Source: Azolla caroliniana
Lineage: Eukaryota > Plantae > Polypodiophyta
Direction of reading: 5' to 3'
Length of the DNA stretch: 64,000 nucleotides
Assembly: GCA_043228905.1 (NCBI GenBank)
Contig: JBHGNT010000016.1
Span: 4,030,001 to 4,094,000, forward strand
Part shown: piece by piece, positions 14,765 to 57,645 of the stretch
Numbering within the stretch: position 1 is the first letter of the stretch
Layout: every line of letters starts with the position of its first letter
Translations under genes and position numbers: made by a program
The notes under the pieces: generated by a model
The model's database searches: none
Told to the model about the DNA's origin: nothing
Seen by the model: only the letters and a program-made list of their open reading frames with translations

Positions 14765-14837
14765 TGGAGATGCAAGATATCGATCCCCGTACCTCTCGCA
14801 TGCTAAGCGAGCGCTCTACCATTTGAGCTACATCCCC
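14765..14837 (-). tRNA. tRNA-Ala(AGC), A copy with C61>T B-box variant
   Basis: Plus strand reads gcaagatatcg instead of gcaaggtatcg. Confidence 0.7.
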
Positions 14838-15798: not shown

Positions 15799-15871
15799 TG
15801 GAGATGCAAGGTATCGATCCCCGTACCTCTCGCATGCTAAGCGAGCGCTCTACCATTTGAGCTACATCCCC
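15799..15871 (-). tRNA. tRNA-Ala(AGC), A copy
   Basis: Identical to 11663-11735. Confidence 0.88.
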
Positions 15872-16832: not shown

Positions 16833-16905
16833 TGGAGATGCAAGGTATCGATCCCCGTACCTCTCGCATGCTAAGCGAGCGCTCTACCATTTGAGCTACA
16901 TCCCC
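16833..16905 (-). tRNA. tRNA-Ala(AGC), A copy
   Basis: Identical to 11663-11735. Confidence 0.88.
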
Positions 16906-17866: not shown

Positions 17867-17939
17867 TGGAGATGCAAGGTATCGATCCCCGTACCTCTCG
17901 CATGCTAAGCGAGCGCTCTACCATTTGAGCTACATCCCC
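17867..17939 (-). tRNA. tRNA-Ala(AGC), A copy
   Basis: Identical to 11663-11735. Confidence 0.88.
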
Positions 17940-18900: not shown

Positions 18901-18973
18901 TGGAGATGCAAGGTATCGATCCCCGTACCTCTCGCATGCTAAGCGAGCGCTCTACCATTTGAGCTACATCCCC
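18901..18973 (-). tRNA. tRNA-Ala(AGC), A copy
   Basis: Identical to 11663-11735. Confidence 0.88.
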
Positions 18974-19934: not shown

Positions 19935-20007
19935 TGGAGATGCAAGGTATCGATCCCCGTACCTCTCGCATGCTAAGCGAGCGCTCTACCATTTGAGCTA
20001 CATCCCC
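19935..20007 (-). tRNA. tRNA-Ala(AGC), A copy
   Basis: Identical to 11663-11735. Confidence 0.88.
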
Positions 20008-20968
20008 TTTGAAAATGTCAAAATGATACAAATAATTATTTCCTGTGAAACCTATGTGACTTCAGTTACTAAATAGTGGTTTCGTGTGCACCAATGAATT
20101 CTAGTACTCCACATTGTCCTCTTGGTTTCCATGCCTTGTACTGAAATGAAGGATTCATAATATTCCGACTTCTATGTTTATGGCGTAGTCTTTAATCTAG
20201 TTTCACATTCATTTCTTGTTTTGAATGGTGATGGCTTTTTTCTTCGATAGTTCCATGGCACCCTAAAAGATTGTGCTTCGATGTTTTCAAGGAGTCCTTG
20301 TTGACCTATTACTAGGAATGCCTTCCACTTGAGTCATGTGTTCATCACAATCCTACATTTAGGTTTCTCGCTTACTCTTTAATTTTGTCGGCTAAGCACT
20401 CTCCTATTTAAAAATGATGGCTTAAATCCCTAAAGATGATGGGTATCAAAATAAATGAATTGGAGATGAGGGGTATCGATCCTCGTACCTCACGGATGCT
20501 AATCCAATGTTTTACCATTTATGTTACATCCGCTTTGAGAGTGTTAAAAAGATACAAGTAATTGGTTTCTGCACTCGAATACGAACGTGAAACCGGTTGT
20601 GGCCGGTCGACTCCTAACATCTTCTTAGTTTCTGGCTTACTCTTTAATCTTGTTCTCTGATGATTTCAAGGACTCCTTGTTGGCCTATTGGTTGGAATGC
20701 TTTCCACTTGAGTCATGTCTTTATCATAATCCTACATCTAGATTTCTTGCTTACTCTTTAATTTTGTCCTGTAAACACGATGATTTCAAGGACTCCTTGT
20801 TGGCCTATTGGTTGGAATGCTTTCCACTTGAGTCATGTCTTTATCATAATGCTTTCCACTTCTAGGATTCTGGCTTAGTCTTTAAGTTAGTCTGGTAAAC
20901 ACTCTTCTATTTAAAAAGGATGACTTTAATCCATAAAGTCAAGATGAAGGGTATCAAGATAAACCAAT

Positions 20969-21950
20969 TGGAGATGCAAGGTATCGATCCCCGAACCTCT
21001 CGCATGCTAAGCGAACGCTCTACCATTTGAGCTACATACTTTGACAATGTCAAAATGATACAAATAATTATTTCCTGATGAAACCTATGTGACTTCAGTT
21101 ACTAAATAGTGGTTCTGCGTGCACCAATGAATTCAAGGACTCTAGATTGTCCTCTTATTTTCCATGCCTTCTACTAAAATCAAGGATTCATAATAATCCT
21201 AGTTCTATGTTTCTGGTGTACTCTTTAATCTAGTTTCACATTCATTTCTTGTTTTGGATGATGATGGCTTTTTTCTTTTATAGTTCCATGGCACACTAAA
21301 ATATTGGGTTCTGATGTTTTCAAGGTGTCTTTGTTGACCTATTACTAGGAATGCCTTCCACTTGAGTCATGTATTCATCACAATCCTACATTTAGGTTTC
21401 TGTCTTACTCTTTAATTTTGTCCGCTAAGCACTCTCCTATTTAAAAATGATGGCTTTAATCCCTAAAGATGAAGGTTATCAAAATAAACCAATTGGATAT
21501 GAGGGGTATTGATCCTCGTACCTCACGCATGCTAATCTAGTGTTTTACCATTTATGTTACATCCGCTTTGACAGTGTTAAAAAGATACAAATAATTGGCT
21601 TCTACACACGAACACGAACGTCAAACCGGTTGTGGCCAGTCGACTCCTAACATCTTCTTGGTTTCTGGCTTACTCTTTAATCTTGTTCTTTGATGATTTC
21701 AAGTACTCCTTGTTGGCCTATTGGCTGGAATGCTTTCCACTTGAGTCATGTCTTCATCACAATCCTACTTCTAGGATTATGGCTTACTCTTTAATCTCGT
21801 CTGGTAAACACTCTTCTATTTAAAAAAGATGACTTTAATCCATAACGTCAAGATGAAGGGTATCATGATAAACCATTTGGAGATGAAGGGTATCGATTCC
21901 CATACCTCTCGCATGTTAAGTGAGCGCTCTACCATTTGAGCTATATCCCC
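20969..21950 (-). pseudogene. Right-flank diverged tRNA-Ala copies: 20969-21039, 21494-21566, 21878-21950 (last has anticodon AAC)
   Basis: Same body with acceptor deletion, B-type decay and anticodon change respectively. Confidence 0.8.
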
Positions 21951-36497: not shown

Positions 36498-36520
36498 GAA
36501 AGGTATCAAGATAAACCAAT

Positions 36521-36677: not shown

Positions 36678-39600
36678 TGAAGTGGATGGTCGGAGGGTAC
36701 GTAGGGTGAAGCTCGTCCCGATGTCGGACTACGGAGTGCATCTGACAGCTCTCGCAAGTCGTCACGAACCGATGCACATCCCGATACAGTCCCGGCCACC
36801 AGTACTTCCCCTTTATCTTCTCGAACGTGGCCCACGTTCCACGGTGTCCAGCCCAAGGGCTGTCGTGGTAGGCCGTCAGTAGCTCCTCCTGTTCTTCCTT
36901 CATCGCCACCACCCGGAGCGGGACGCCGTTCCTCTTCTTCGGGTGCTTCCATAAGTATCCGTCCCGGAGAAAGAATCGGTAAGCTTTCTTCCGGATCCGG
37001 TTGGCCTCGTCCTTCGTCCATGACGCATCCAGCGTCATTGTCCTCAAAAATCCACCGATCTGGAGCCACTCGCCATCGTACCTGCTCTCGTCGAAGTCGT
37101 TAAGTGCCGGAGTGCTCATCCCATCCCTTGAAGAAGTCCACGCCGACTTCTTCGTCCTCCGAAACCATGCCGCCCTCGTCATCAAACCTCGCCCTCGAAA
37201 GCATGTCGGCCATGGTGTTGTCCTTTCTGGAAATGTGTCGTATTTCCAGGTCCAGGGACTTGATGTACGCTATCCACCGGAGCATCGCCAAGTCCGGTGT
37301 CGCGCACCCGGAAACCATGCCGAGAATCGGCAGGCAATCCGTCTCGATAACCACTTCTGTCCCGATCAGGTAGTCTTTGTCAGCCTTTACTGCCAAAACG
37401 ATACCCCAGAGTTCACGTTTAACCTGGGCGTACCCTCGCTGTCGTTCACTGAGGACCTTCGCGCCGAATCGGATCAGGAACCGAATGCCGTTCTTGTCCT
37501 CTTGGTTGACGACCCATCCGATCCCGGTCGGACTCGTATCCACTGTTATGTATACCGGGGTACCCTTCCCGTAGACAGCCTTCCTGAGCGTCGGTGCTGC
37601 CGCAAGAGCTTCCTTCAGCTTCCGGACCGACTCCGTGTGCTCGTCTCGCCACTCGAATTTTCGCCCTTTCTTCAGCAACCCGTATAGCGGCTCCGCAACG
37701 TGGGCGTAATGCAGGATCCATATGTGGTAGAATGCACATGCCCCCAGGAACCTCCGAACTTCCGTAACCGAGCTACAGTCGGTCTTCATCGCGGAGATGG
37801 CTTCTACCTTTGCCAGAGACGGCTTCCGACCATATGGTCCACATAGGTGTCCGACCACCAGGATTTCCGATTGCCCGAAGGCCGATTTCTCCCCGGAGAA
37901 GGTGAGCCTCACATCCTCTAGCCTTTGTAGCACCTTCTCGCAGTCGTCGATGTGTGTTGCCACGAATCGCCGGCATCTGTCCGGTCCGAGTGTTGCGTCC
38001 CTCTCTTCTACCGGGCACCCCTTGATCGGAATGTCGTCTAGAAATGGCACGGTGATGTCCGGGATGCAATCCCTCAGTACCTTGTTCATTGCATTCACCA
38101 TGTGGGCCACCGAGTTGGTCCCTCCTTGTGGCAGGGTACACATTCGCACTAGGCCGAGGGGAGTTCGCATCGTCGTAATGTCTCTGCTCTCCACGGCTAG
38201 CTGGAACTGGTCGTACCCCGAGTATAGATCACCGACCGAGTAAATCGACCTTCCGGCGAAGGCCTCCGCGAACTCGTCTATGGTCGGTCCGATTCCTACG
38301 TTCCGAATGGTCACTCTGTTGACCGGCTGCAGGTCCTGAATGAAGCGCAATGTTCCGTTTTTCTTTGGTACGGTAAACCATCGGTTCGAGTATGGCGCGC
38401 TCGACGGTTCGAGAATACCCATATCGACTTTCTGCCTCAGTAGCTCCATCAACTCCGGGATGTGAGCTCTTGGTACCGGAATCGGCTTGAGATTCCACGG
38501 CACATGCGGTACCGTGAATATCACCATCGGCTCCACAATTGTCGGGTCTACGCACCCGATCTCTTCCGGCGAGAATGTGAAGGCTTTCTCGTGCCTTCCG
38601 AGCATTCTCCGAAACCGGTCTTCCTCCGCCGGCAGTAGGAACCCGCCCCCACCGATCTTCAGCTCCCAGAGCGTCCCGTCGGTGAAGGTGTATCCTATGC
38701 AGGCCGGATCTCGTAAACTGGGGTCCGACGCCACCCCTCTGATTCGGGACTCGCTGCACTCCGGCAAGGGTGCCGCGACTGGCCTTACCTTCCGGTCCAC
38801 AGTCTTGTACTTCGTGCTAACTTGGGCCGTCCGATCCAACCCGAGCCCCCGACTGAAGTTCGCGATGACTTCGTACATCTCTTCGGAACATACCGGTATC
38901 GTCCGGTCTTCGTTAAGGTCTTCTCCGGCTACCTTCCTCAACATTCCCAAGGTGTCGTCGAAGGAGACCGCCTCCACTCATCTGCCAGCGCCGAGTCGTC
39001 GATGTGGGTCGTCCGCACCTCCACCGGTCTTTCCGGTTCCGTCTCCGTCGACAGCCTCTTCCGTTTCACCAAGTCTACAATGGAGTCGTGGAACTCCTTC
39101 TTGGCGATCCCTAGCACCTCCCGCAATGACAGCTCCACTTTGCTGTCGAGGATCCGTTCTTCTAGGACCTTTCGTAGGTCCGTAGTCCTTTCTATTTCCG
39201 TCCCCAGTCGGTATCCGCCCTTCCTGGGGTTATCTTGCGAGCTGGACCCACCGGCATCGTTCCGTCGCTGCCCGAATCGGGTCTCGTACCGTTGTGAGGG
39301 CCCGGCCGCTCCGGCTTTCCCCGCTCGTTTGTCTTCTACCAGAGCCTCGTAGTTCCGACAGGAGGCTTCTACGAAGCCCGTCTTCTCCTCGACCGGGTCG
39401 CTCCACCCGGTTACTTCCCGGACCCGTCTCTCAGCGCGGTCCGTTTCATCTTTGCTCAGCCGTGCGCCAGCGAGGCCTTCCAGCATTGCCGACCAGAAAC
39501 CTTCTTTGCTCTCCTTTCGGGCCTCGCTGCCCCCGACCCGAATACCAGCCGACGCCGAGTAGTGGATGGCCTCCCCATGTCGGGCCGCTGCCTCTTCCAT

Positions 39601-41287
39601 CAGTCTCTTCATACCTCCTCGCCCGTCGTTTCGGTTCAGGGCCCTCCTGGTGTCGCCGGCGTGCACCCGGCCTTCCCACAGGTACACCACCCAGTTTCTC
39701 AACGCCTCTGCAAAATCGCCGCAGTCCTTCCAAATGTGGCCGACCTCGTCGCACCACATGCACCTGTTCCCCGCTGCCGGCCGTCGGTCACGAGCCGGTT
39801 CGCCGCCTTCCCTTCGAGTCTGGGCGATCTGGAGACCCTTTATCGCCCGCGTCAACTCCTCCAGCGCTGCCCCTCCGGACGAGCCATTGACCATGACGGT
39901 CGAAGCCGGACCGGTTTCGAGCCATTCCCGGGTTTCTTCCCTTCGCACTTGCGGTGCCGGTTCAAGCCTCCTTGCTGTGACAGAGCCCGCACCGGCCGCC
40001 CCGTTGTCAACCCATTCTCGTCGTTTGTCAAAACGGCCACAGACTCTCTTAACCGCAGCCCAGTCGGTTGTCAGCCCGTCTTCGGTTTCCAGCAAGGAGC
40101 CGACTTGATCCCTGTCCCGCTCGTCCACCGACTTGACGAACAATAGGACCCGGCTCGTATCCAGAACGGTTCGGTCAAGCGCCGATAGGCACGCAAAGCG
40201 TTCTTCGAACTCCCGGAGGAGTGCCGACGCGTTTCTTCCCTTGCCAGGGGACTCCACCCATTCCATGAAGTCCCGTTTCGAAAGCCGGAGTGCGTCGTCC
40301 AGGCCGTATTTTTCTAGGAGTCGGCCTTCGAACTCCTCCCAGGTACGGCTCTCCGCCCGCACCTTGAGCACCTCCGCATGGATGCTCGGCATCGCCACTC
40401 GAGGAAACCCGGCAAGACGCCTCTCTTCCGGAATGTCCCGCATCAGCATTTCTGCCCCGTAGGACGCCAAATACTTTGTGGCATCCTTTCCGCTGAACCG
40501 GCCGATCGTACCGACGACCGCCTCAATGGCTCTGTCGAGGGCGCCGGTGCCCTCGCGTGCACTCAATATCCGATCCACGACCGAAGTCATGGCCTCCGCA
40601 AGATCCGACCCTTTCATCTTCTGCTCTTCTGCCGCCTCCTTCACGTCGGGTTCACCAAAGATGTCGAGGTTTTCCTCGCGGATGCGTGGAATGAGGCGGG
40701 ACCTCAGGGGTCCTGTACCGAAGAGCAAGAGAGAAAGGACAAGAGACCCACTACGTGCGAGCGTAGATTCACAGGGACACGGCCCTTCGACACAAAGACG
40801 CGAGTGGGACAGCGACACAGAGAGACACGAATGTATGTATGTATTAACAAAGACAACAACAAGAACATGGAAGCAACAAAAACACGAAGTCGGTTACAAC
40901 CGAACAGGCCAGCGAACAGATGTCGATGCCTGTTCGTAAACGGACAGAAAGAAAGGAGCAGGTTGGAGGTGCTGCCGGAAGCACTCGGGCATTCCTCAGA
41001 GCAGCGCGAGCCTCCCGAAACCTGCACAGAAGGAAGCTATGGAGTTTGCGAACCAGAGAGAGAGAGAAGCCTTCGCACCCAAACCGGCAGCACTTTGTCC
41101 TCGACTCTCCGCGATCCATCCCCCTTCTCGTCTCCCTCCTTTTATAGGCAAGGAAGGAGCAGTTTCCCCTTTACTTCCTACCCACTAAATCTACCTGCCT
41201 AGGATCTTCTATGGACAACATTCGAGAAGAGCCGGTTCCTACGCTCCTATGCACCGATTCCGCTTGTGGACGGTTTTCTTCACGACA
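36678..41287 (-). mobile_element. Gypsy B, same lineage as A, 3'-truncated in integrase, protease deleted; 5' LTR 40662-41287
   Basis: Gag ORF to 38938; RT-RH ORF 37100-38977 (FLDD); tRNA-Trp PBS 40640-40657; TG..CA LTR. Confidence 0.92.
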
Positions 41288-44200
41288 ACGTTGACTCTGG
41301 CGCGTCAAACCACATGACGAGCCATAAGGAGTGGTTCTCATACCTTGAGAAACCGATGCAACCGGGAGTAGTCGCAATAGGAGACAACACTCCACATCCA
41401 ATCGAGAATGTCGGTGAAGTTCCCATGAGCCATGTTAGGCAAAAAGGGAAACTCATGAACGTGTTACACGTCCCGACAATCACAAAGAATTTGGTGTCGA
41501 TCGGGCAGATCGTCGACCAAGGGATGCAAGTTTGGTTCACGCATCTCGGGTGCTTCATCAAGGAGGAAGGCCAAGTTATTGCGCAAGGGCGTAGAGACGG
41601 GAGGATGTTTATCCTCGACACCAATGACGTTGGCACCGCAATGTTCGCAAAAGGACAAAAAGTCGATTCGGATATTGACTTGTGGCACAAGCGGATAGGC
41701 CACATCAACTATCAAAGGCTTCAGGACTTGCAATCGAAACAAGTTGTGTTCGGATTGCCCAAATTTAGTGGCTGGAAGGCCCAAATCTATGAAGCCTGCC
41801 AGCTAGGGAAGCAACACCCACTTCCTTTCCCCAACGAACGTAACCGGAGTAGGTATACGCCGGAGCAAAACGGCGTAGCCGAAAGGAAAAATCGGTCAAT
41901 TGTGGAAGCGGCATGGGCAATGCTGGAAGAAAAGAGCTTGCCCAAGTTCTATTGGGCCGAAGCGGTACGAACCGCGGTCAACATACAGAATTGGATCGGA
42001 GACAAGGTGTCGGCGCATGAGCTGTATTTTGGAAGGAAACCAAATCTACGACACTTGAGAGTTTTTGGTAGCATTGCGTATGTGCATGTGCCGAAGGAGA
42101 AATGGAGGAAGTTGGACACGAAAGCCGAGAAGTGTATCTTGGTCAGCTATTCAGACGAACAGAAGGGTTATAAGTGTTATAACCCCCGAACCAAACAAGC
42201 TCGCGTAAGCCGCAATGTTGTGTTTGACGAGTCTGCGTCCTGGTACTTGCCTCCAACTCCAGACCTCAACTCCAACTCTGGACCTCCAGACTCGAGTTCT
42301 GACGATGAGGTCAACGAGGCTGAAATGATTCCGGATGACCGCGAAATCAAGACCCTCGATGAGAGTCCGATTTCATTTCGGCTAAGTGGACCGAACGAAC
42401 GACTGGGTTGGTTTGACCAGTCCAAAGAAGAGCCAGCGAGTAGTGGAGACTCGGTCGTGCATTCCCCGCGTAGGAAGCCGAGGAGATGGTTTACGCGCAA
42501 GGAAAAAGGGAAGAAGAAGGTGCCGGAGTACGGCACAGATAAGGGCAAGTTGGATCGACGCGAATCTGACTCCAAGAAGAGCGATGACAAGCCTTCGAGA
42601 GTGAAGTCTGCATCGGCCAAGACAGCCTCAACATTGGCTAATGTGCAATTACGCCAATCTACCCACCAGAAGAACCCTGTTGTGTGGTTCGGATACAACG
42701 AGTACATGGCGCATCACTATGCGTACATGACGCGTGTAGCAGAAGTGCGTGAGTCGGAGAGCTACATAGAAGCGGCGAAGCAAGCAAATTGGCGTGCTGG
42801 AATGGAGGAAGAGATGTGTGCATTGGCAGAGAATGAAACCTAGGACCTAGTTGACGCACCGAAGGGTGTGTGAGCCAATTGGATGTAGGTGGGTGTGCAA
42901 GGTCAAGTACAACACTGACGGCTCGGTCAACCGATACAAGGCCCAGTTAGTAGCGAAAGGCTACGCGCAGCAACATGACATTGATTACGATGAGACGTTT
43001 GCGCCGGTCGCAAAGATGATGACCGTTCGTGTTTTGCTTGCGGTAGCTGCGGCGAAGGGGTGGCATTTACATCAGATGGATGTCAAGAATGCATTCCTGC
43101 AAGGTGAGCTTGAGGAATAGGTGTACATGGTAGAGCCCCCCAAATTTCACTCCAGAATGAACACCTCGGCGGTCTGCCATTGAAGAAGTCCCTTTACGGA
43201 TTAAATCAAGCCCCGCGTGCTTGGAACGCGAAAATCACGCAGCGATTGCGTCGGAAGGGATTTGTGTCGTCCAAATCGGACTCTTCACTGTTCATTCGGA
43301 AAGGTCGCCTCGGGCCGGTTAGTATTTTACTTTATGTTGATGACTTGGTCATCACCGGCGCCGACCTAGGTGAAATTGACCGCGTAAAACTCTAGCTCGC
43401 AACATCATTTAACATGAAGGACCTAGGGGACCTTCATTACTTCCTTGGGATCGAAGTGATCCGTACCCCCGATGGCATACTGATCAGCCAACGGCATTAC
43501 GTGTTGTGTATGCTCTTCAAGTTTGGGATGGCAGATTGTAAGTCTGTCTCGACTCCTCTAGATAGAACCGTCAAGCTTCCCCCCGACTCTGGCAAGGTTT
43601 GCGACCCGAAGAGATTCCGACAAATTGTTGGAAGCCTCACTTACTTGACTATCACTCGACCAGACGTCAGTTACCCAGTCGGTGTGATTAGTCAGTTCAT
43701 GGCGCGGCCAACCAAGGAGCACCTTCAGTGCGCACAACGCGTACTCCGGTACGTCAGTGGCACTAAGTACCGGGGGCTACTATATCGGACCGATACTGCC
43801 CCGTAGTTAGTCGGCTACACCGATGCTGATTGGGCCAGAAACGCCGGCGATCACCGATCCACATCTGGATTCGCGTTCTCTCTTGGGAGCACCGCGATCG
43901 TGTGGAGTAGCAAGAAGCAGTCGATAGTTGCACTGTAGAGCACCGAAGCCGAGTATAGAGGAGCGGTTGTCACAACATGCAAAGCCATCTGGCTGAAACG
44001 GCTACTTAAGGATCTGTAGGAGGAGGTGTCCGATCCGACGATGATCTACTACAACAACCTCAGCAGCATCCAGTTAGTGAAGAACCCTTTCATCCAAGCC
44101 CGGACTAAGCCCATTGAGGTGCACTACCACTTTGTTTGCAAGCGTGTCCTCTCTGGTGAAGTCGAACTTCAGTATGTTCCTACGGATCGACAGACCGCCG

Positions 44201-44646
44201 ACATTTTCATCAAGCCTCTTGGTCTCGACAAGATGCGGCAATTCTCGGGTGCGCTTGGGTTGCGACACCTCGATGAGCCGAACTTGAGGGGGAGAGAAGT
44301 CCCGGAAGACCACAGAAGGGTGCACTACCACTTTGTTCGCAAGCGTGTCCTCTCCGGTGAAGTCGAACTTCAGTATGTTCCTACGGATCGGCAAACCGCC
44401 GACATTTTCACCAAGCCTCTTGGTCTCGACAAGTTGCGGCAATTCTCGGGTGCGCTTGGGTTGCGACACCTCGATGTGCCGAACTTGAGGGGGAGAGAAG
44501 TCCCGGAAGACCACGGAAGGGAGCAAGAAAGGAGTGGAAGAAACCGTGACGTCGAGTCGGATGCCGATTTCGATTTCGAGTCGGTTGAAGAAGCCCAGGG
44601 TGGATCCGCGAAAGAGTCTGAAAGCGAACGCGAGGTAAGCAACTAA

Positions 44647-44680
<34 letters not shown>

Positions 44681-47600
44681 TATTAACGTCTTCTAAGGCC
44701 AAATTTGGCCCATGAGACAATTGTTTTACAACAAAAGAGTATTTATCCAGTCATCATAACTAAAATAAAATTAAGTAAAAAATAGAACTTAAACTAAAAG
44801 AGTTCTAGTAGTGTACAATACGTAGTATACTCGAAAGTGACTATACACTAAGCCTAATTTTATTTCCACCCAAGCCTCTCGAAAAGAAGTGGGGGGTCAA
44901 AGGGTCTTGATGTGGGTGTGACCCGTGGTTCCAATGTAGAGAGTGCCCTAGCCATGGCTTCTAGGCGGTATAGCTCACGTACCCTTATTTTCAATATTGC
45001 TTCCACATCACATCGAGTTGCTTTGAAACCCGGCACCTGAGGACGTCTGGTTCTTCTCTGGTTTTCTGCCTCATCAATGGAAAGGTCGAGTGGTGCAAGT
45101 GTGTCGGCATTCGTTGTCTCCTCTTGTTCCTGAAAAACTTCATTTGTTATATGTTCGTGATCATTAGCAACATTATTGTCAACATTTTGTAACTTATTCT
45201 CTCTGTGTTGTTTTAGCTCTAGAATGTATTTGCCTAATTTCTTTATATCTAGAGTATCTAATAGTTTGGGGAGGGTGGGAGACGAACCAAGTATGTCTTG
45301 GTATTTTGCCCTTATCTCGGCATAGGTTGGACACTTGCATGTAAAGTGGTACTCATCCTCTATCTCTATGTGACATAACCTACATATCCTTTCCTCCCTA
45401 GGGACTCCACTAGTACGGCCATTCTCAATCTCAAGTTGGTGAGATGATATTCTAAGTTGTCCAATGGCAACCCTTAGTGCATGTGGTAAGAATACATCTA
45501 GATATTTTGGCCGCGTGATAAAACCTAACTCAGAGAAGTGCATGAAGTGTTTCTTATAGTACAACATTTTAGATGGGAGTGGCTCTAGTGGGGTGATCCA
45601 TTTACACCGAGTGTAAATTTGCCATATTTCTTGGCGTATTACTTTATTGCGGTCCTCATGAGAGATTAAAGTGTTATCACTTGTGTGGTTGTACCTAAGG
45701 GGAGGTAAGTTATTAATGTCTAGACCATTTGCAAGAAGCCAACTCACCATCATGCCATACCATGAGCTAGTATAGCTGGACTCATACAATGATCAAGAGG
45801 CCTTAAAGGCTTGATGAGATATTCTATCATGTGGTTGGCTATGTATCCTGTGAATGAAGACTACAAGTTGAAAAAGTGCCTCTACTAACATTGGGGGTAA
45901 CATGAACTCAGCCCTAATAATGTCATGTGGTACAGTCGATTTGCTTCGGAGTTGGCATGATAGCATCATCACCAATGGTCTCTCTAATTGCGTCCACATG
46001 AAAGACGGTAATCCTAGAGCCCAAACCGCTGATGCATAAATGAGGGAGGGGGTCACTAATGAGTCAAAGAGCCACCCTTTAGTCCATGGCTCTTGAAAGT
46101 GTGCTTGGTGGCATTGTCTCTCTAGGAGTGAGAGGGATGCATGTCCTCTCGTGAGTCTATCCTTCGATGCCTGTGTCATCGAAAATTTACCTGAGCGAGC
46201 ACTACAAGTGACTCTGAGATAGACGTATGATCCAACCACCTCGACTGGGCTATGGGAGATAGTTAGGTGACACTTAGCTCTAACTTGGGCCGATGTGTGG
46301 AAGATAAGGACTTTTGTTTTCCCTAGATTCACTACCAATTCTCATTGTACACAAAAGTCATCTAAGGCATTAAGGTGCCTTTGTAGGTCGTGTTCGGATT
46401 TAGAGAGCAAAACTATGTCATCCGCATAGAGCAAGATACGAACCTGCGTATCCCCAAGGACCACTCCGATGCCTCCCTCACGAGCAATAAAATCTGTGAT
46501 CTCATCAATGTAGATCCCAAAAAGTGTCGGTGATAGGGGGCAACCTTGTTTTACACCAATAGTGCTAGTGAAACGATTAGATAGGCCACTTGGGCATCAG
46601 ACACACCCGGACACTTGTTCATATAGTGCGTAGATGGCCCATACCATATCATCTAGTATCCTCAAGCTTTTAATTCTATCAAACAACCGCTCTCTAGGGA
46701 CTGTGTCAAAGGCTTTGCGGAAGTCCACAAAACAACAATATAATTTCTTCTTGCGAGCCTTAGTTTGGTCAATTAGGCATCTAAGTGTGAAGATATGATC
46801 AATAGTGGAGAAGGCTCGTCTAAAGCCAGCTTGTTCAGGTGCACAAAGGTTTAGGGTCTCCATATAGTCGCTAAGCTCTGCTTCCATTACTGCACCATAT
46901 AACTTAGCAAGGGTATGGCCTATCATAATGGTCCTATATGTATTTGGGTCCATGGGGTCCCCCCCTTCATGTATGGGGGCCACTGTATTCATAGTCCACT
47001 ATGGTGGAAAACCCTCCACAAGGGCACGATTGAAGATTAGAGTTAGCAAGGGAGCTAGGCACTCTCTCGCATATATAATGTGTTCTGCTCGCAATCCTGT
47101 GTGGTCCATGGACTTCCTATGTTGTAATTTCTTTATGAACTTCACGACCCTAGAGGTCGTGAAAAGTGTCCCCGTGGTAGGCCGGGGTGTGGAAGGCATT
47201 GGAATGGGTGGTTGGTTTGGGATTTGGTAAAGTCGCTCTGTATATGTGTGCCAAGTTTCGGGATCTTCAATGGGTGTTTGTGTTCTTGGCTCCCGTAGTC
47301 TCTTCCATGCCGTGGCGCAATCGCTACTCATGATCATATGGTAGAGTTCCCAATATTGGGATGCCTCCCACGCTCGTCTCTTACGACGTGTCATCTTGCG
47401 CATTTCTTTGCGAGCTTGTATGGAGGTAATACTACCATTGAGTTGCGATACTGTAAGTTGTCTATGTAAGTCCCTACAATCCTCGTCATACCATTTATTT
47501 TGTGGCATTGATCCTGATCTACCTTGATTTGAGTGTTTTGTATATGGGAAACTGCTAGCTGCTGCGGAGTGAAGGATGTGTGTGAGTTTTGTACTAAGGC

Positions 47601-49804
47601 TTTCTAACGGTAGGGAGGGATCAAGGGAGGGGAGATGGGCCTGAACATGTTGAGAGTATATGTCAGAGAGCTCATGTGTGAAATGTATTGTGGTGTGATG
47701 GCATGGTTGACTAGACTTGGTGACCTTAGAGATATCACATTTTAGCTCGAAGTATAAGAAACTATGGTCTGCGCCAATAGGGCATGGGGCCACTCGGAAG
47801 GAGTTAATCATGTGGGTAGCTTTAGGGTGCCCTATTAGATAGTCAACTGTGCTTTCCCCTCCTCCATGTGGGAAACATGTGAGCTCTTCCGAGCCCGGCC
47901 ACTTAGCTAAACCATTATATTTGACCATCCAGTGCCGACTGCCAAGTTCGAGCAGATGATGGCCAAAGCTCATGGCGTCCGCACCTTGATCCTTTGATCT
48001 ACGTGTGGTGCCTATGTCTAAAGGATCAACATTTACCATTTCTAGGTTTCTATTCATCTGAAATACTGTGCATTGTCAGGATTGGGTTCTTGCATTGAAG
48101 TCTCCTACAAGAAATACTTCTCCTTGGGAATAATATCGGATTATGTCATCCGATAGGGGTTTGTATGGAGAAGGCCCATGTGGCCTTCCTTCATCGACTA
48201 ATCTCTCCAAGCCACCAATATTATAACGGGATCCTTTTGGGGGAAAGTAACAAATGGTGAAAAATACTGCCTGGTCTTTGCTTGTGGAGACTTTCACCCA
48301 CATAAAACGAGCTTCTAGGTCTATCTTCATTATTTCTATCCTATTATGTAGCTCTCTACGAAACAGTATTGCGACACCTCCAGATCCCCTAGTAGTGTGT
48401 CGACGTGAGGTTTGTCTAAAAGCGGACTCCCAACGGAATCCATCGACCTGTGGGAGTCCTCTATTTGGGCTCTGATGTGTTTCTACCAAGAAAAGTATAT
48501 CAGATACCTTCAGTATCTCCTCTAGGCGGTCGGGGTGTGCCCAGAGTGCGCCGCTACAATTCCATAGGGTCATCCTAAGTGCACTTTCTGTCACATGGGC
48601 CACACACCGTCAATTAGTAGTGTGATCATTTATGATCATTCACTCGTCTCGGTAAAAGGCGCGATGGCCTTCTTTACGAGCTTGCATAACTCGTGGCAAA
48701 CAACTCTTGCGATGCTCAATTTGCATCTTAGTGAGGTCTTCATCGAGATAGATGGGGTCCCCACCCATTCCTCGAAGGATTGGTCTCTTCTTAAAGAAAG
48801 TGATTCTAGAGTCTAAGTCTTTAAATTGAAGAACTAAGGCTCTCTTCCTAGTTGTGTCACGCCCGGCCCTCCATGCTTTGGTGATAGGTAGGGCCTCTGT
48901 GTACCCTAACATTTTCCCAAGTGTTTGTGCGTCCTCATTTGGGGATGCACCTTCCTTGAGCCCAGTGACACGTACATTTTAGCGTTGGGCCTGACGCATT
49001 TTCTCTTCTTCAAGGGTGGTATTAACAACATTTTCATCTTTTATTTCTTTTTTAATGTTTCTTTTAACCACATCTACCCAACCCATTTTAGCTAACTCTA
49101 TGTTATTATTAACTTCCTCTTTAACTTTTTTAATTTCGTCCTTTATATCCTCTATAGAGGATATTTCACCGTCTTCTCGAGATACCTCAATGTCCTTAAG
49201 TTGTTTTTTAAGGTCGGTGTTTTCCACTTTAAGTTGTTCTATTTCGGCCTTGAGGGCGTCTTTTTCCTCTCTATCTTTTTTCTTGTGGGTTTCGGTGTCT
49301 TTCACCCATTTTTTCATATCCATCTCTATTTTTGTTAAACGATTAAACATATCTAAAAAGTCCTCCTTACTTATAGCCTCGTCTTGTATATCCTTATGTT
49401 CCTTAGTTCGTTTAGACGTCATTGTGGTGTCAATAAGAAAAAAAGGTAAAATAAATGGGTTCGAGACTTAGCCGAGTTTGTGTGTATGTCGCAATCACAT
49501 CGGCATTTTGTAGCACGCGATGAGCACACCAAAAGAACCCACCCACGAACTCGTCAAGAAAATGGCACTTCACAACGTCAAGAGAAAACGGAGAAGAAAC
49601 ACCCCGCGACGGCGACGGTGGCGGCGGCTGTCGTCAAACGACAGCAGACGACGGCAGCAGACGGCAGATGACGGTAGCAGACGACGGCTGCACACGGTAG
49701 CAGACGGCAACAGCCGCAAACAGCGGTAGTCGTCAGACGACGACAGCAACAGTCGGTTGCAGACGACGGCGACGGCGACGACACTAAACGGCGACAGCAA
49801 CGGC
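44647..49804 (-). mobile_element. LINE A, apparently full length but decayed (GC-rich 5' UTR, ORF1 49422-48610, ORF2 to 44860, (CTTT)n tail)
   Basis: Coiled-coil ORF1; APE, RT and C-terminal Cys/His motif fragments; AAAGAAAG on both sides; Copia C frame resumes at 49805. Confidence 0.88.
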
Positions 49805-50440
49805 AAAGAAAGAGCCAAAGCCAGCCAAGCATGGGGGAGATGAAGCCAACTCGGACAAGAGTGAAAACCGATCGGAGGAAGCTGATTCGGTTCGGATGTT
49901 TGATTCAGAGACGCCGAATCGACCGAGGGCCAAGCGGAAGAAAGGGCAGCCGAAGAGGCACCAACATCACAACAACAAGGGAGCTGAGAAGGGTCGCACA
50001 AGCACACACGCCGACTGGAAGGGTCGAGGCATGCGGAATCAAACAAGACGAGGAGCGCGAGCGAGGCGTGAAGCCAGAAGAAACCGGAGTGGTGATCTGA
50101 AAGAACCAGAAGAGCCTCAAGTTGAGCTTGAGGGGGAGTATTGAGATACAAGCTCAACATTGGCCGGATCGGCTGTGCAAGCCAAGAACTGGATCGGTTG
50201 GGACCGATCGGTTAGGCCGGACCGGTGCGTAAACCAGGTGTGCAAACCGGTGCGCAACAAGAAGCCATAGCATTGCGTAAACCGGGTGTGCAAACCGGTG
50301 CGCAACAAGAAGTTGTAGCGGTGCGCAAACCGCGAAGCCGTTGGAAAGATATTCCGCGAAGCACATCCTATGTACAGATTGAGTATTATTATTTTGTATA
50401 GAGTTGTGTGTATTGACACTCTCTCTCTCTCTCTCTCTCT

Positions 50441-53400
50441 TTAAAGACTTAGACTCTAGAATCACTTTCTTTAAGAAGAGACCAATTCTTCGAGGATTGG
50501 GTGGGGACCCTATCTATCTCGATGAAGACCTCACCAAGATGCAAATTGAGCATCGCAAGAGTTGTATGCCAAAGGTTATGCAAGCTCGCAAAGACGGGCA
50601 TCGCGCCTTTTATCGAGATGGGCGAGTGATCATAAATGATCGCACTACTAATTGACGGCGTGTGGCCCATGTGACAGAAAACACACTTAGGATGACCTTA
50701 TGGAATTGTAACGGCGCACTCTGGACACACCCCGGCCGCCTAGAGGGGATATTAAAGGAATCAGATATAGTTTGCCTAGTAGAAACACACCAAAGCCCAA
50801 ATAGGGGACTCCCACGAGTCGAAGGATTTCGTTGGGAGTCGGCTTTTAGACAAACCTCACGTCGATGCACTACCAGGGGATCTGGAGGTGTCGCAATATT
50901 GTTTCGGAGGGAGCTACATAATAGGATAGAAATACTGAGCACTGACCCAGAAGCTCGTTTTATGTGGGTGAAAGTCTCCACAAGCAAGGACAAGGCAGTA
51001 ATTTTCGCCATTTGTTACTTCCCCCCAAAAGGCTCTCGTTATAATCTGGCTGGCGAGGCGAGATTAGTTGATGACGGAGTGCCACATGGGCCTTCCCCAT
51101 ATGAACCTCTATCGGATGACATAATCCGATATTCTTCCCAAGGCGAAGTATTCCTTGTAGGAGACTTTAATGCGAGAACCCAATCCCGACAATGCACAAT
51201 ATTTCAAATGAATAGAAACCTAGAAATGGTAAATGTTGATCCTTCAGACATAGACACCACACGTAAATCAAAGGATCAAGGTGCAGACGCCACGAGCTTT
51301 GGCCATCATTTGCTCGAACTCGGTAGTCGGCACCAGATGGTCATATATAATGGTTTAGCCAAGTGGCCAGGTTCGGAAGAGCTCACATGTTTCCCACATG
51401 GAGGAGGGGAAAGCACAGTCGATTATCTAATAGGACGCCCTGAAGCCACCCACATGATTAACTCCTTCCGAGTGGCCCCATGTCCTATTGGCGCGGACCA
51501 TAGTTTCTTATACTTCGAGATAAAATGCGATATCTCTAACGTCACCAACTCTAGTCAACCACGCCATGACATCACAATACATTTCACACATGAGCTCTCT
51601 GACATATATGCTCGACATGTTCAAGCCCATCTGTCCTCCCTTGATCCCTCCCTACCTTTAGAGAGCCTTAATACGAAACTCACACACATCCTTCATTCTG
51701 CAGCGGTTAGCAGCTTCCCATACACGAAACACTCCAATCAAGGTAGAGTAGGATCTATGCCACAAAATAGATGGTATGATGAGGATTGTAGGTGCTTACA
51801 TCGACAACTTACAATATCGCAACTCAGTGGTAGTATTACCTCAGTACAAGCTCGTAAAGAAATGCGCAAGATGACACGTCGTAAGAGACGAGCATGGGAG
51901 GCATCCCAATATTGGGAACTCTACCACATGCTCATGAGTAACGATTGTGCCACTGCATGGAAGAGATTACGGGAACCAAGACCACAAACACCCATCGAAG
52001 ATCCCGAAACTTGGCACACTTATACAGAGAGACTTTACCACATCCCAAACCAACCACCCATTCCAATGCCTTCCACACCCCGACCTACTGTGGGGACACT
52101 CTTCACGACCTCTAGGGTCACGAAGGTCATAAAGAAATTACAACATAGGAAGTCCATGGACCACACAGGGTTGCGAGCAGAACACATCATATACGCGAGA
52201 GAGTGCCTAGCTCCCTTACTAACTCTAATCTTCAATCGTGCCCTTGCAGAGGGTTTTCCATCACAATGGACCATGAACACAGTGGCCCCCATACATAAGG
52301 GGGGGGACCCCATGGACCCAAATACTTATAGGACCATTATGATAGGTCATACCCTTGCTAAATTATATGGTGCAGTAATGGAGGCAGAGCTTAGCGAGTA
52401 TATGGAGACCTTAAATCTTCGTGCACCTGAACAGGCCGGTTTTAGACGAGCCTTCTCCACTATTGACCATATCTTCACACTTAGATGCTTAATTGACCAG
52501 ACTAAGGCTCGCAAGAAGAAACTATATTGTTGTTTTGTGGACTTCCGCAAAGCCTTTGACACGGTCCCTAGAGAGCGGTTGTTTGATAGGCTTAAGAGCT
52601 TGAGGATACCAGATGACATGGTTTGGGCCATCTACGCACTATATGAACAAGTGTCCGGGTGTGTTCGATGCCCAGGCGGCATATCCGATAGTTTCACTAG
52701 CACTATTGGTGTAAAACAAGGTTGCCCCTTATCTCCGACTCTTTTTGGGATCTACATTGATGAGATCACAGATTTTATTGCTCGTAAGGGAGGCAATGGA
52801 GTAGTCCTTGGAGATACGCAGGTGCGTATCTTGCTCTATGCAGATGACATAGTTTTGCTCTCTGAATCCGAACACGACCTACAAAGGCACCTTAATGCCT
52901 TAGATGACTTTTGCACACAACGAGGATTGGTAGTGAATCTAGGGAAAACTAAAGTCCTTATCTTCCACACGTCGGCCCAAGTTAGGGCTAAGTGTCACCT
53001 AACTATCTCCCATAGCCCAGTTGAGGTGGTTGGATCATATGTCTATCTCGGAGTCACTTTCAGTGCCCGCTCAGGTAAATTTTCGATGACACAAGCAGCG
53101 AAGGATAGACTTACAAGAGGACATGCATCCCTCTCACTCCTCGAGAGACAATGCCACCAAGCATACTTCCAAGAGCCACGAACTAAAGGGTGGCTCTTTG
53201 ACTCATTAGTGACTCCCTCTCTCATGTATGCATCAGCGGTTTGGGCCCCAGGACTACCATCTTTCATGTGGACGCAATTAGAGAGACCATTGGTGATGAT
53301 GTTATCACGCCAACTCCGAAGCAAATCGTCGGTCCCACATGACATTATTAGGGCTGAGTTCACTCTACCCCCTATGTTAGTAGAAGCACTTTTTCAACTG

Positions 53401-54586
53401 GTAGTCTTTATACACAGGATACATAACCAACCACTTGATAGAATATCCCACCAAGCCTTTAAGGCTTCTCGAGCATTGTATGAGTCCGGCTATACTAGCT
53501 CATGGTATGGCATGATGGTGAGTTGGCTTCTTGCCAACGGTCTAGACATTACTAACCTCCCCCCCCTTAAGTACGACCACACGAATGATAACACTTTACT
53601 CTCTCATGAGGACCGTAATAAAGTAATACGCCAAGAAATATGGCAAATTTATACCCGGTATAAATGGATCACCCCACTAGAGCCACTCCCATCTAAAATG
53701 TCGTACTATAAAGAACACTTTATGCACTTCTCTGAGTTAGGTTTTATCACGCGCCCAAAATATCTAGATGTATTCTTACCACATGCACTAAGGGTTGCCA
53801 TTGGTCAACTTAGAATATCATCTCACCAACTTGAGATTGAGAATGGACGTACTAATGGAGTCCCTAGGGAGGAAAGGATATGTAGGTTATGCCACATAGA
53901 GATAGAGGATGAGTACCATTTTACATGCAAATGCCCCACCTATGCCGAGATAAGGGCAAAATACCAAGACATACTTGGTTCCTCTCCCACCCTCCCTAAA
54001 CTATTAGATACACTAGATATAAAGAAATTAGGTAGATACATCTTAGAATTGAAACACCACAGAGAGAACAAATTACAAAACGTTGATAATAATGTTGCTA
54101 ATGTTTACCAACATATAACAAATGAAGTTTTTCAGGAACAGGGGGAGACAATGAATGTCGACACACCTGTACCACTCGGACTTCTCCTTGATGAAGCAGA
54201 AAATCAAAGAAGAACCAAACGCCCTCGGATGCCGGGTTTCAAAGCAACTCGACGAGATGTAGAAGCAATAAAGAAAATAAGGGAACGTGAACTACACCGC
54301 CTAGAAGCCATGGCTAGGGCACTCTATGCATCGGGACCATGGGTCACACCCACACCAAAAACTTTTGACCTCCCACTTCTTTTTGAGAGACTTGGGTGGA
54401 AATGAGATTAGGCTTGGTGCAAAGTTTTGTACACTACTAGAACTTTCTTAGCTTAAGCTATTTTCTTTTATTTTTAGTTTTGATGATTGGATAAACACTC
54501 ATCTTTTGTTGTAACCTATTTGTCTCATGGGCCAAATTTGGCCTTAGAAGACGTTAATATATCTTTCTTTCTTTCTTTCTTTCTTT
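50441..54586 (+). mobile_element. LINE B, same family, 5'-truncated within ORF1, inserted in a (CT)n tract
   Basis: End of ORF1, intact ORF2, (CTTT)n tail, CT repeats on both flanks. Confidence 0.93.
50662..54405 (+). CDS. LINE ORF2: AP endonuclease-reverse transcriptase, 1247 aa; true start uncertain
   Basis: WNCNG, GDFNA and DH motifs (APE); QAGFR, GVKQGCPLSP and YADD (RT); C-terminal CRLC..EDEYHF..C. Confidence 0.92.
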   Translation: MAHVTENTLRMTLWNCNGALWTHPGRLEGILKESDIVCLVETHQSPNRGLPRVEGFRWESAFRQTSRRCTTRGSGGVAILFRRELHNRIEILSTDPEARFMWVKVSTSKDKAVIFAICYFPPKGSRYNLAGEARLVDDGVPHGPSPYEPLSDDIIRYSSQGEVFLVGDFNARTQSRQCTIFQMNRNLEMVNVDPSDIDTTRKSKDQGADATSFGHHLLELGSRHQMVIYNGLAKWPGSEELTCFPHGGGESTVDYLIGRPEATHMINSFRVAPCPIGADHSFLYFEIKCDISNVTNSSQPRHDITIHFTHELSDIYARHVQAHLSSLDPSLPLESLNTKLTHILHSAAVSSFPYTKHSNQGRVGSMPQNRWYDEDCRCLHRQLTISQLSGSITSVQARKEMRKMTRRKRRAWEASQYWELYHMLMSNDCATAWKRLREPRPQTPIEDPETWHTYTERLYHIPNQPPIPMPSTPRPTVGTLFTTSRVTKVIKKLQHRKSMDHTGLRAEHIIYARECLAPLLTLIFNRALAEGFPSQWTMNTVAPIHKGGDPMDPNTYRTIMIGHTLAKLYGAVMEAELSEYMETLNLRAPEQAGFRRAFSTIDHIFTLRCLIDQTKARKKKLYCCFVDFRKAFDTVPRERLFDRLKSLRIPDDMVWAIYALYEQVSGCVRCPGGISDSFTSTIGVKQGCPLSPTLFGIYIDEITDFIARKGGNGVVLGDTQVRILLYADDIVLLSESEHDLQRHLNALDDFCTQRGLVVNLGKTKVLIFHTSAQVRAKCHLTISHSPVEVVGSYVYLGVTFSARSGKFSMTQAAKDRLTRGHASLSLLERQCHQAYFQEPRTKGWLFDSLVTPSLMYASAVWAPGLPSFMWTQLERPLVMMLSRQLRSKSSVPHDIIRAEFTLPPMLVEALFQLVVFIHRIHNQPLDRISHQAFKASRALYESGYTSSWYGMMVSWLLANGLDITNLPPLKYDHTNDNTLLSHEDRNKVIRQEIWQIYTRYKWITPLEPLPSKMSYYKEHFMHFSELGFITRPKYLDVFLPHALRVAIGQLRISSHQLEIENGRTNGVPREERICRLCHIEIEDEYHFTCKCPTYAEIRAKYQDILGSSPTLPKLLDTLDIKKLGRYILELKHHRENKLQNVDNNVANVYQHITNEVFQEQGETMNVDTPVPLGLLLDEAENQRRTKRPRMPGFKATRRDVEAIKKIRERELHRLEAMARALYASGPWVTPTPKTFDLPLLFERLGWK

Positions 54587-54686
54587 CTCTCTCTCCCGCG
54601 CACTGTGTGTGTCCAACCTTTCCATTAAACCTGTGTTTTCCTTACGTTCGGTTTTCTGTTGCTTCCGCACATTGTTCCTTTTAACA

Positions 54687-56163
54687 TTCCGGCCACAAGG
54701 AAAAAAGGGACCGGAAAGGCGTGAACAGGCGTGTGCACGGATGTGCGCGAAAACTTTAATAGGAAAAATTAAATAAGGGAATAAATCTAGGCGAATCTCT
54801 ATCCGGGAGGGCATAAGTTAATTACATGGTGTGACAGCTCCTTCCCGCTTTGGCCTATAAAAGGAGGAGGAGAGGGTTGATCATTATCGCGCGTTTAAAG
54901 GGGAACGAAGTGTTGTCCGACTGGGAACCGAGCACCTATTCTCTGCATTTTCTTTTTGTTTCCTCTTAGGTCAGACGCCTCTGCTCGCGTAGGAAGCCCG
55001 TGTGCTCCCGGCAGAGGCTCCACATTATACTTTGGTGATTGGTTTGCGTGGGTTGCTCGCTGAGATCGAAGCTCGACTACCGGTCGAGCCAGTTGTAACT
55101 TCTCTATCTTCTAATCGAGATGTTGGTATGCATTTCTTGTTGATCATCTAACATGTTACCCCGATCCCAGCCAAGCCACTTGGGCCCTCTGCATCTCGAC
55201 ACCTAACATCTTACGCACCCTCCGTCTATCTTATTCCCCTTCTTCTTCTTTAACTCTTCGGTCTGAGGCCCCCATGGTCCCCCGCCTAGCTTCACACACA
55301 CGCGCGTAGTTACGCAACATAATTTGGTGAACCCGACATGAAAAGGCGGTAGAGGAGTCTGAAGAATGAGGGGAAGTGAGCTTGTTGAAGCCATGGCGGT
55401 AGCCATTGGCTGGCTAGTGAGCGCTAGTGAGGGCACGGGTGCCCTTGACAGGGCCATCGAAACAATCGCATGCACAGTAGGCCGATTTGGTGGGAAGAAC
55501 GTGAAAAGTTACCTTGAGGCCTACCAGAACGTCCAGGAACCAGTGGTGGCGCTAATAGACCATGGATCTGAAATCAACCTAATGTCCATGGATTTCTACA
55601 AGAAAGGGAAGTGGCCGATCAACACCAAGCACGGATGGAAAACACACGCAGCTACGTGCGCTATGGAGGAGCTACACGGGGCATGCCCGAATGTACGCGT
55701 GAAGATTGGCGATATCAAGATTGATCAACACTTTTTCATACAGGAGACCTCCTCGCACCCGGTGATTCTTGGAGAACCATACATTATGGTGGCCCGTATG
55801 GAGACCAAAGTGTTGGACAATGGTTCGGCGTACACGCAGGTGAAGAGCCAAGATGAGCGTCACTCCATCCAATTTCTAACTATGCGACTGAATCACAAGC
55901 GTAACCGCGAGTCTCTCGGCAGCGACGACCGAGAGGATGTTTAGAGAGGGCTATCAAGGCGTGGGGCCACGGTAGTCTGAACAACCCGGAGAAACCCCAC
56001 ACATGTACCATAGGTAGGAAATGTTGGTTCTCCGACAACGGAGGTTGTATTATAGCCAGCGTCAGCGGCCAGAAAAAGAAGCAGGTCGAAGAGCGTTTAA
56101 GGGCGTGCGGTGCCCTTGGCTCTGACGATGAGATTAGCGACGCCGTGGAGGTGGTCTCATTTG
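54687..56163 (+). mobile_element. Gypsy D relic (partial 5' LTR to 55319, deleted gag, protease, frameshift region)
   Basis: LTR resembles Gypsy A; PBS TGGTGAACCCGACATGAA at 55325; ORF 55366-55944 with LIDHGS protease. Confidence 0.85.
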
Positions 56164-57645
56164 CTCAAGAGGGACCTCCCATCTTCCTCGTCATCTATGT
56201 GGATGACATGCTACTCTCCAGTTGACATGTCAGAGATCTTGACGAACTTGATCGGCAATTGCGGTTGAAGTTTGCCATGAAGGATCTCGGTCCGACAAGA
56301 CACATTCTCGGGATGAAGATAAGTCGGAATAGGAATCGACAACGGTTATTTCTGTCTCAATCTGACTATATTGGACGTGTCTTAGAACACTTCAACATGC
56401 AATCGGCCAAATCTGCCTCGACCCCGCTCCCAAATAAGTCGTCGGTTGTCTTAGCGAGACTGCCCGACATCCGGTCCAGAGGGGGAAATTATGAAGTCGG
56501 TACCATATGCACCAACAATCGGCTCCTTAATGTACGTGATGGTCGTGACACGACCTGACATTGCTCATGGTGTCGAAGTCATCACCAGATTCATGCACAA
56601 TCCCGGTTTATCGCATTGGAACGTGGTAAACCATGTGTTCTGATATCTGGTGGGCACAAAAGACTATGGCATCCTATTCGACCCGAATGACACTTCAGGC
56701 ATAATCGGATACAATGACTCAGACTTTGTCGGTTGTGTGGACAGTCGAAAATCGACAACCGGTTATTGTTTCAAATTCGTAAATGGAGCAATCTCGTGGA
56801 GGTCGAAACTTTAGGTGTGCACTTCTACATCAACGACCGAGGCCGAATACGTAGCCGTGTCCGACACGGTGAAAGAGGCCTTATAGTTCGAGTTGTCTAT
56901 AGTGACAGTCATGGCGTTGTCGCTCTGTCAAAAAATCCGATCCAACACAATGCCTCGAATCACATCGACATGAGATATCACTTTGTTCGAAACTGTGCCA
57001 TTTCAGGTAAAATCGACCTCGAGAAGATACCTACAGCCGATAATGTCGCAGACGAGATGAACAAGTGTCTTTTGGCGGATCGATTTCGATCCCTTTAGCA
57101 TTACATGGGTGTAACAAATAATAGGTCTGATTCAGAACGGTTTTGGACATTTAGCTTCAACTGTTCGAGACTCGGCTTCAGTCCTTCCGATCCCAGCTGA
57201 CCCGGCCTTCTATTCTCAGATCTTGCCGAACTCGAACAAAGCCTACTTGCTTGTTTACTTTGTATAATATGTAATTCTTGTTTATTCTTTCTATTCTTTT
57301 TTCATATACACCCATAACGGGGGAGTGTCGAATACGGGTCTCTAATGGACGTATTCACATTGTCCTATTGGACATACTAGGTTTATACCATATTTGTAAA
57401 TACTGGGAAGGGCAGTTGCCCTAGGTCAGTGGTATATAAACTAACCCTTGTAACCTAGTCAGTGGTGGTTGCTCATTCTATACATTGAGTTGTTGAGCTT
57501 GAGTAACAAAGTTCATCTTGTGCCCAAGTTTCTATTCTTGAATTCTTGAATTCATGTTTGATCTTGTTAAATGATTCAGTTTTTTGTAATCATTAATCTA
57601 CACGACTTGTACCTGTTAATGATCTTTCACTAGAGGAGTATAACA
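56164..57645 (+). mobile_element. Copia E relic (RT/RNase H, PPT, 3' LTR 57326-57645)
   Basis: IYVDDML, KDLG and HIDMRYHFVR motifs; GGGGGAG PPT; TG..CA LTR abutting a half tRNA. Confidence 0.82.

Follow-up and report, generated by a model that had tools for sequence, protein, structure and literature searches.

A possible tombusvirus-like switch in a LINE clade of ferns and more distant eukaryotes: a 3'-terminal hairpin that may open and pair behind the ORF1 stop codon

The window analysed here, a stretch of 64,000 nt from the fern Azolla caroliniana (contig JBHGNT010000016.1), contains two related LINE copies arranged head to head, LINE A on the minus and LINE B on the plus strand. LINE B is 5'-truncated at 50440, right after a (TC)n run, and only the last 71 codons of its ORF1 are left (50440..50652), ending in DGRVIINDRTTN and standing in the same frame as the TGA at 50653-50655 and the downstream ORF2. 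This single in-frame UGA at the ORF1/ORF2 boundary, which is found family-wide, is followed by an 8-nt spacer beginning with CGG, a type II readthrough context (50656..50663), within an open ORF2 frame of 1249 codons (50656..54405) that encodes an APE endonuclease (EN; 16-272; PF03372, E 8e-12) and a reverse transcriptase (546-795; PF00078, E 1.6e-33); the copy ends in a (TCTT)n tail merging into a (TC)n run (54562..54595). LINE A, a decayed copy on the minus strand, consists of an ORF1 of 270 codons with two internal stops (48613..49422), a junction UGA followed by CGG (48610..48612) and an ORF2 interrupted by several stops (44860..48609). The junctions given in a previous, sequence-only reading, ACT AAT TGA CGG CGT GTG GCC for LINE B and ACT AAT TGA CGG TGT GTG GCC for LINE A, were confirmed to the letter, the TGA of LINE B being in frame with both ORFs and the stop of LINE A lying at 48612-48610. 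Neither copy is able to make a fusion protein itself, since LINE B is 5'-truncated and LINE A carries stops in both ORFs, and at 90% identity the two are no independent witnesses; the case for readthrough therefore depends on evidence from the family.

The combination of an ORF2 with APE endonuclease and reverse transcriptase, the lack of LTRs, 5' truncation, a simple-repeat 3' tail and dispersed copies identifies the element as an APE-type non-LTR retrotransposon (LINE). The best solved-structure match to the ORF2 endonuclease was the L1 endonuclease, while a single-sequence search of the PDB returned 0 matches. The ORF1 pieces gave no Pfam match above the cut-off and no esterase match; the ORF1 homologs are unnamed fern proteins, with Adiantum and Ceratopteris as the named sources, and share one fixed end position after a DGRVIIxG motif. 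Rfam returned 0 matches over 44400-54800. The element may belong to the RTE-X (RTEX) clade. RTE-X elements end in a simple-repeat tail and have an APE-RT ORF2 with a Cys/His motif at its C-terminus, and the LINE described here resembles them in these features, whereas the RTE-X ORF1 esterase has no match in it; this comparison is with the general features of the clade.

Several further features surround the two copies. The runs of (TC)n at 50419-50439 and 54595, as well as those seen at other loci (L258-L266), show that copies often adjoin (TC)n and end in (TCTT)n, which suggests that the LINE prefers TC/GA microsatellites for insertion. The segment between the two LINEs (49570-50400) comprises the GC-rich 5' UTR of LINE A and a 48-bp repeat at 50223-50332. 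Other retroelement fragments, by eye gag/protease-like and copia-like pol, lie at 38938-40893 (minus strand), 41203-44646 (plus strand) and 55363-57098 (plus strand), and the tail of LINE A sits inside a copia-like element. From about 11250 to 21850 extends a tandem array with a period of 1034 bp, composed of about ten near-identical units made of 120-bp subrepeats; decayed relatives occur between about 4000 and 11000 as well as at 36500.

Within the own genome, the 301-nt junction yielded 546 candidates, of which 40 were scored and 11 of these were identical, and in many copies the TGA is flanked by a complete ORF1 of 268 residues and by an ORF2 that is open at its start. When the stop was left free, the junction pattern had 140 matches, with TGA in 98 of the 100 listed; as this pattern demanded CGG, it bears on the stop and not on the context after it. 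For the family alignment, 289 own-genome loci were reduced to 221 rows passing an anchor (the arm motif within two mismatches, the ORF1-end motif and the WN motif) and to 149 distinct junctions; the loci counted are the top-scoring ones, so that the sample leans towards young copies and the choice of loci partly accounts for how little the arm varies in it. TGA was found in 144 and an intact frame in 147 of these 149 junctions. The B-group (n = 120) has TGA in 116 copies, TAA in three and GGA in one, followed by CGG (108), CGA (5), TGG (3), CAG (3) or CGT (1), with 118 junctions in frame. Family E (n = 29) has TGA in 28 copies and is in frame in all 29, its next codon being CGA in 20 of 29 and mostly a CpG-decay form in the remainder. 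J-like and other divergent queries against the own genome detected no families besides the B-group and E. As judged from the aligned junctions, the in-frame stop is an ancestral trait of the family.

Both window copies are defective, and a predicted protein (P0190) joins an ORF1-like end to the middle of the endonuclease, which might indicate that the stop is a decay mutation or an assembly artefact in a single-ORF element, or that it is spliced or edited out. We regard this as extremely improbable: the stop is present in all young identical copies with both frames open, and because copies are made by reverse transcription of RNA, they would lack it had their template been edited or spliced. 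Strand 1 of the endonuclease is missing from P0190, which seems to be a gene-model splice. No GT..AG joint across the stop was listed in contigs of four runs each, although contigs cannot show expression, strand or editing. Natural ORF1-ORF2 fusions were also looked for, and the best 150 of 2005 profile matches contained no convincing case; the five proteins inspected were rejected as chimeric gene models, a separate ORF2 or P0190.

A scan of metagenomes gave 46 loci, 34 of which show, by eye, both the ORF1 end and strand 1 of the endonuclease. The junction is in frame in 32 of these 34, the exceptions (L196 and L201) being decayed; the remaining 12 loci are truncated, junction-deleted or without endonuclease after ORF1, and one metagenome locus (L226) is in frame yet has three stops. 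Overall, the frame is kept in ten lineages with endonuclease identities of 19-71%, the identity to B being 42-53% for E, J, K and M and 24% for N and P. Before the conserved Trp, the linker varies in length by whole codons (12, 13 or 15), and that a minimum of two linker indels stay in frame has, taken alone, a chance probability of about 1 in 9. The junction reads TGA CGG CGT GTG in B, A2, C and D, TGA CGG CGT ATG in F, TGA CGG TGC GCG in G, TGA CGG TGT GTG in H, TGA CGG TTA GCC in K and TGA CGG TGC ACA in M; in E, TGA is followed by CGA or CGG and then TAT ATG, while I, which is decayed, has TAA CGG TGC GCG. A different stop is used in J (TAG GGA TTT GCG) and P (TAG GGG CTT TCC) as well as in N (TAG GAA) and O (TAG AGA), both decayed; the UAG-GAA of N and UAG-AGA of O each lie one G-to-A step from GGA, which we take as decay. 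Selenocysteine insertion or a variant code was rejected, as the stop is UAG in sister lineages and TGA also terminates ORF2; selenocysteine is not known from land plants. A conserved in-frame stop in the context UGA-CGR or UAG-G(G), as expected of a readthrough site, is thus found across the lineages, and the lineage tree requires two context changes, with one not excluded and the placement of P unsure. The sequence-only reading had considered UGA-CGG a leaky-stop context, and it indeed belongs to a known readthrough class: in the classification of viral sites consulted here, UGA-CGG is the type II and UAG-G the type III context, and Virgaviridae share the motif stop-CGx-xxx-xxG, with a stem following after 8 nt (PMC3159437). 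A scan of viral contigs gave one chance locus (L247). A distant GC-rich open element (L223:779-781) reads CAA-UAG-GGG at its junction and lacks a Met over 96 codons.

It had furthermore been claimed that ORF2 has no AUG before the first endonuclease strand. This is true of LINE B, whose first in-frame ATG is codon 13 (50692..50694), located inside strand 1 and aligned with I10 of the human L1 endonuclease; strand 1 was modelled at residues 11-20 with a mean pLDDT of 73, residues 1-7 being disordered. It is likewise true of D, J, K, M, N and P, which have no in-frame ATG before the Trp and their first Met at codons 33-103. The claim fails for E (29 of 29 copies) and F, where codon +3 is an in-frame ATG. 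The codon-13 ATG is replaced by ATC in subfamily D and is absent in five other families, and distant homologs (P0011-P0015) are annotated with a Met start of their own. These start codons bear on whether ribosomes might terminate at the UGA and restart a few codons on, at AUG or GUG at +3 or at any codon, thereby releasing a free ORF2p; the long-range duplex described below would then position or hold the 40S subunit. In line with this, codon +3 is ATG in E and F and GTG in B, A2, C, D and H, in each case followed by GC, and a start at the ATG would give an ORF2p N-terminus as long as that of human L1 and may provide E and F with a second route. Reinitiation is used by L1 and by SART1, in the latter with downstream structure (PMC5972666), and in the part of the literature on rat L1 consulted here no fusion was found, the ORFs of mammalian L1 being likewise in frame (PMC2241872). 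By contrast, codon +3 varies between GTG, ATG, GCG, GCC, ACA, TGG and TCC and is not start-like in eight lineages (G, I, J, K, M, N, O and P), and M has neither ATG nor a near-cognate codon before the Trp. Moreover, an AUG-independent restart predicts neither a fixed frame nor a single stop nor a swap between two readthrough contexts of known type. The G at +9 is explained both by the duplex and by the xxG motif of viruses, and neither a conserved ORF2 AUG nor the multi-stop spacer or stop-start overlap of L1/SART1-type reinitiation was found. We therefore consider reinitiation an unlikely source of ORF2p. An out-of-frame AUG lies in the arm sequence downstream of the stop, as AUG-UGA at 50669-50674 in the B-group and with a 5-codon frame in E; it could be a trap for rescanning ribosomes or a by-product of the arm sequence.

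Regarding RNA structure, the sequence-only reading had proposed that 50656-50669 pairs with 50722-50734. This local stem can be drawn and is part of the minimum free energy fold of +1..+105, but this region folds no better than its shuffles (z of +1.15 for LINE B and -0.41 for LINE A). Across 13 sequences, 81.5% of the cells are paired and four pairs show double changes, values reached by 1/500 (pairing) and 19/500 (double changes) of the shuffles, counts which occur in 5-25% of structure-free alignments. Its duplex energy speaks in its favour, being equalled or exceeded at 14 of 1000 ORF2 positions; RNAalifold, on the other hand, did not recover the stem, and a second local register was discarded as poorly paired (63%). 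In codons +1..+9, synonymous changes are half as frequent as expected (9 seen versus 19.6 expected, z of -3.2, 11 sequence pairs), the lowest among 29 non-overlapping windows, although codons 139-147 and 153-161 of ORF2 are equally conserved; codons +19..+27 on the 3' side of the local stem have no such excess of conservation (36 seen versus 28.9 expected). Taken together, the alignments lend the local stem modest support. A conserved 5' segment with no conserved local partner suggests a partner elsewhere.

In both window copies, the best partner of the post-stop 24-mer is a site in the 3' UTR about 30 nt upstream of the (TCTT)n tail, with pairing energies of -30.6 and -27.3 kcal/mol. The predicted duplex joins positions +9..+21 after the stop to the 3' UTR: in LINE B, the 5' arm lies at 50664..50676 and the 3' arm 3869 nt away at 54521..54533, and in LINE A, on the minus strand, the arms lie at 48589..48601 and, 3894 nt away, at 44707..44719. 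Among 19 correctly oriented full-length elements, the 3' UTR site was the top match to the post-stop 24-mer in 18 and the second in L251, whose arm is mutated. Conversely, when about 4000 16-mers were each paired with the last 60 nt, the strongest duplex in B, A2, C, D and E was that of a 16-mer starting at +7 to +9 (-24 to -27 kcal/mol as compared to -18 to -20 elsewhere), and 0-1 of 1000 shuffles matched it. The duplex comprises 13-15 pairs with one U-U mismatch in the B-group and is paired at 13 of 13 positions in E. Between B and E, which are about 48% identical, two double changes were found, C-G to U-A and A-U to C-G, along with a change of G-C to G-U and one mismatch that is repaired in E. 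One of the two double changes also fits a local 3' hairpin; the second breaks a possible pair of that hairpin, which in our reading makes it specific to the long-range helix. The 3' ends were compared in B, A2, C, D and E, and as four of these families are 85-92% alike, the covariation comes from a single deep comparison, that of the B-group with E.

The 3' arm is predicted to be otherwise buried in a terminal hairpin in five of five families (54522..54552 in LINE B), so that duplex and hairpin would exclude each other, and cofolding favours the duplex over the hairpin by 10-18 kcal/mol. Outside these elements, the 3' UTR is rich in indels. No variant was listed in contigs over 54521-54554 while neighbouring positions varied, an outcome biased by short high-depth contigs and by the 80% filter. 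Computation thus finds both properties of a PRTE-DRTE-like system, namely a complementarity between post-stop sequence and 3' end with covariation, and a mutually exclusive 3' fold, and of the two candidate structures the pairing of +9..+21 with the 3' UTR is the better-supported one. Quite probably, this duplex also forms in cells. Readthrough might nevertheless be driven by the local context and the local stem, with the long-range complementarity serving another step such as RNA compaction, packaging or handling of the 3' end for reverse transcription; the pairing and double changes of the local stem are compatible with this, and the conservation of the 3' arm is partly due to the hairpin. 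The lack of excess synonymous conservation in codons 19-27, the failure of RNAalifold to recover the stem, folding no better than shuffles, and a 5' arm that begins exactly after the 8-nt spacer all argue in the other direction, and we judge this division of roles rather improbable.

The terminal hairpin has 3370 pattern matches genome-wide, with E copies counted twice, and in four runs (X1-X4) contig depth over the last 45 nt is far above that at the junction; this abundance may reflect numerous insertions of very short length or a SINE with the same tail. A third, old LINE family (L313, L314, L317 and L328), about 30% identical in ORF2, carries the terminal hairpin as well, with a variant form of the 3' arm. 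Its junction was absent from the 20 stretches fetched, and a pattern for the predicted junction gave four matches, namely three decayed E copies and one chance match; the family therefore contributes no further covariation.

Following this, we propose that ORF2 is probably made by programmed readthrough, as an ORF1-ORF2 fusion stimulated by the predicted pairing of +9..+21 with the 3' UTR. That a fusion is made by readthrough had been suggested before, and the conservation of stop, frame and context in distant lineages without a conserved start argues for it at the level of sequence. Most ribosomes would terminate at the stop and release ORF1p, while a few would insert a residue at the UGA, or the UAG of some lineages, and continue into ORF2, yielding in the B family a fusion of 1518 residues (268+1+1249); this partition of the ribosomes is the part of the proposal that we hold to be likely. 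While the stop occupies the A site, a helix that begins at +9 would be located at the mRNA entry of the ribosome and could favour a near-cognate tRNA; mRNA positions +9 to +11 are described as lying near uS3/uS5/eS30 (PMC13517186). That the duplex occupies the entry during stop decoding and thereby raises readthrough seems plausible, with the balance leaning slightly in its favour. Elongation would then unwind the helix, and the freed 3' arm could refold as the terminal hairpin, a likely template signal for reverse transcription. Stem-loops at the 3' end are known to play this role in LINEs. The 3' arm may accordingly switch between the duplex during translation and the hairpin during template recognition, such that the enzyme would be made only from RNAs with an intact 3' end; we advance this last step tentatively, at somewhat less than an even chance. 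Equally tentative, and drawn by analogy, is the description of the whole as a tombusvirus-like switch in a LINE clade of ferns and more distant eukaryotes, in which the hairpin opens and pairs behind the ORF1 stop.

It has long been asked how LINEs translate ORF2 from a bicistronic RNA and what makes the product act on its own encoding RNA, and this clade offers a short, testable signal: one stop, an 8-nt spacer, a 13-nt duplex and natural compensatory variants. If the proposal holds, a chromosomal retroelement would have a long-range readthrough switch of a type demonstrated to date in plant RNA viruses, LINE ORF2 could act as a Gag-Pol-like fusion, and ORF2 annotations in this clade that begin at the first Met would be wrong. 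It would moreover supply an RNA-structural mechanism for the cis preference of LINEs and for the timing of translation against reverse transcription. Among the titles and abstracts that our literature search returned, none dealt with readthrough in plant LINEs or with pairing of this kind in any LINE, most subscription journals and Repbase reports being outside its scope.

The sequence-only reading knew of no readthrough in LINEs, but it was already inferred for Group 3 non-LTR retrotransposons of Paramecium tetraurelia (Guerin et al. 2017; PMC5405496). These belong to a ciliate clade, the inference is based on consensus sequences, and the text consulted mentions neither a stop context nor an RNA element or a pairing over long range. 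Mammalian L1 and SART1 are similar in having a bicistronic LINE RNA, in-frame ORFs in the case of L1, and low ORF2 levels; L1, however, has a spacer of 60-63 nt with two stops and an ORF2 AUG, SART1 of the silkworm has an overlapping stop and start, and both reinitiate and produce a free ORF2p according to the accounts consulted (PMC5972666, PMC2241872, PMC5009743). With the type II sites of alphaviruses and Virgaviridae, the LINE shares UGA-CGG, the motif stop-CGx-xxx-xxG, a helix (predicted in the LINE) after an 8-nt spacer and synonymous conservation just 3' of the stop, and its sister lineages have UAG-G, the type III context (Firth et al. 2011; PMC3159437). The adenine at -1 of viral sites is present in E, J, M and P and absent in B. 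In the viruses, the stem is closed within 100-200 nt and there are two peaks of conservation (PMC3159437), whereas the LINE has one local peak and a partner 3.9 kb away. In this respect it resembles the tombusvirus CIRV, whose polymerase is made by readthrough with PRTE-DRTE pairing over about 3.5 kb and a mutually exclusive 3' structure; roles in quality control and cis preference were proposed for this system (Cimino et al. 2011; PMC3234231). CIRV is an RNA virus in which the PRTE, as reported there, resides in a large local stem-loop and was tested experimentally (PMC3234231), whereas the LINE is known from sequence, has modest support for a local stem and would use a duplex of 13-16 bp beginning at +9. 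The LINE is no virus, and the likeness is one of working principle: in both, an element behind the stop pairs, or is predicted to pair, with the 3' end of the same RNA, in competition with an exclusive 3' fold.
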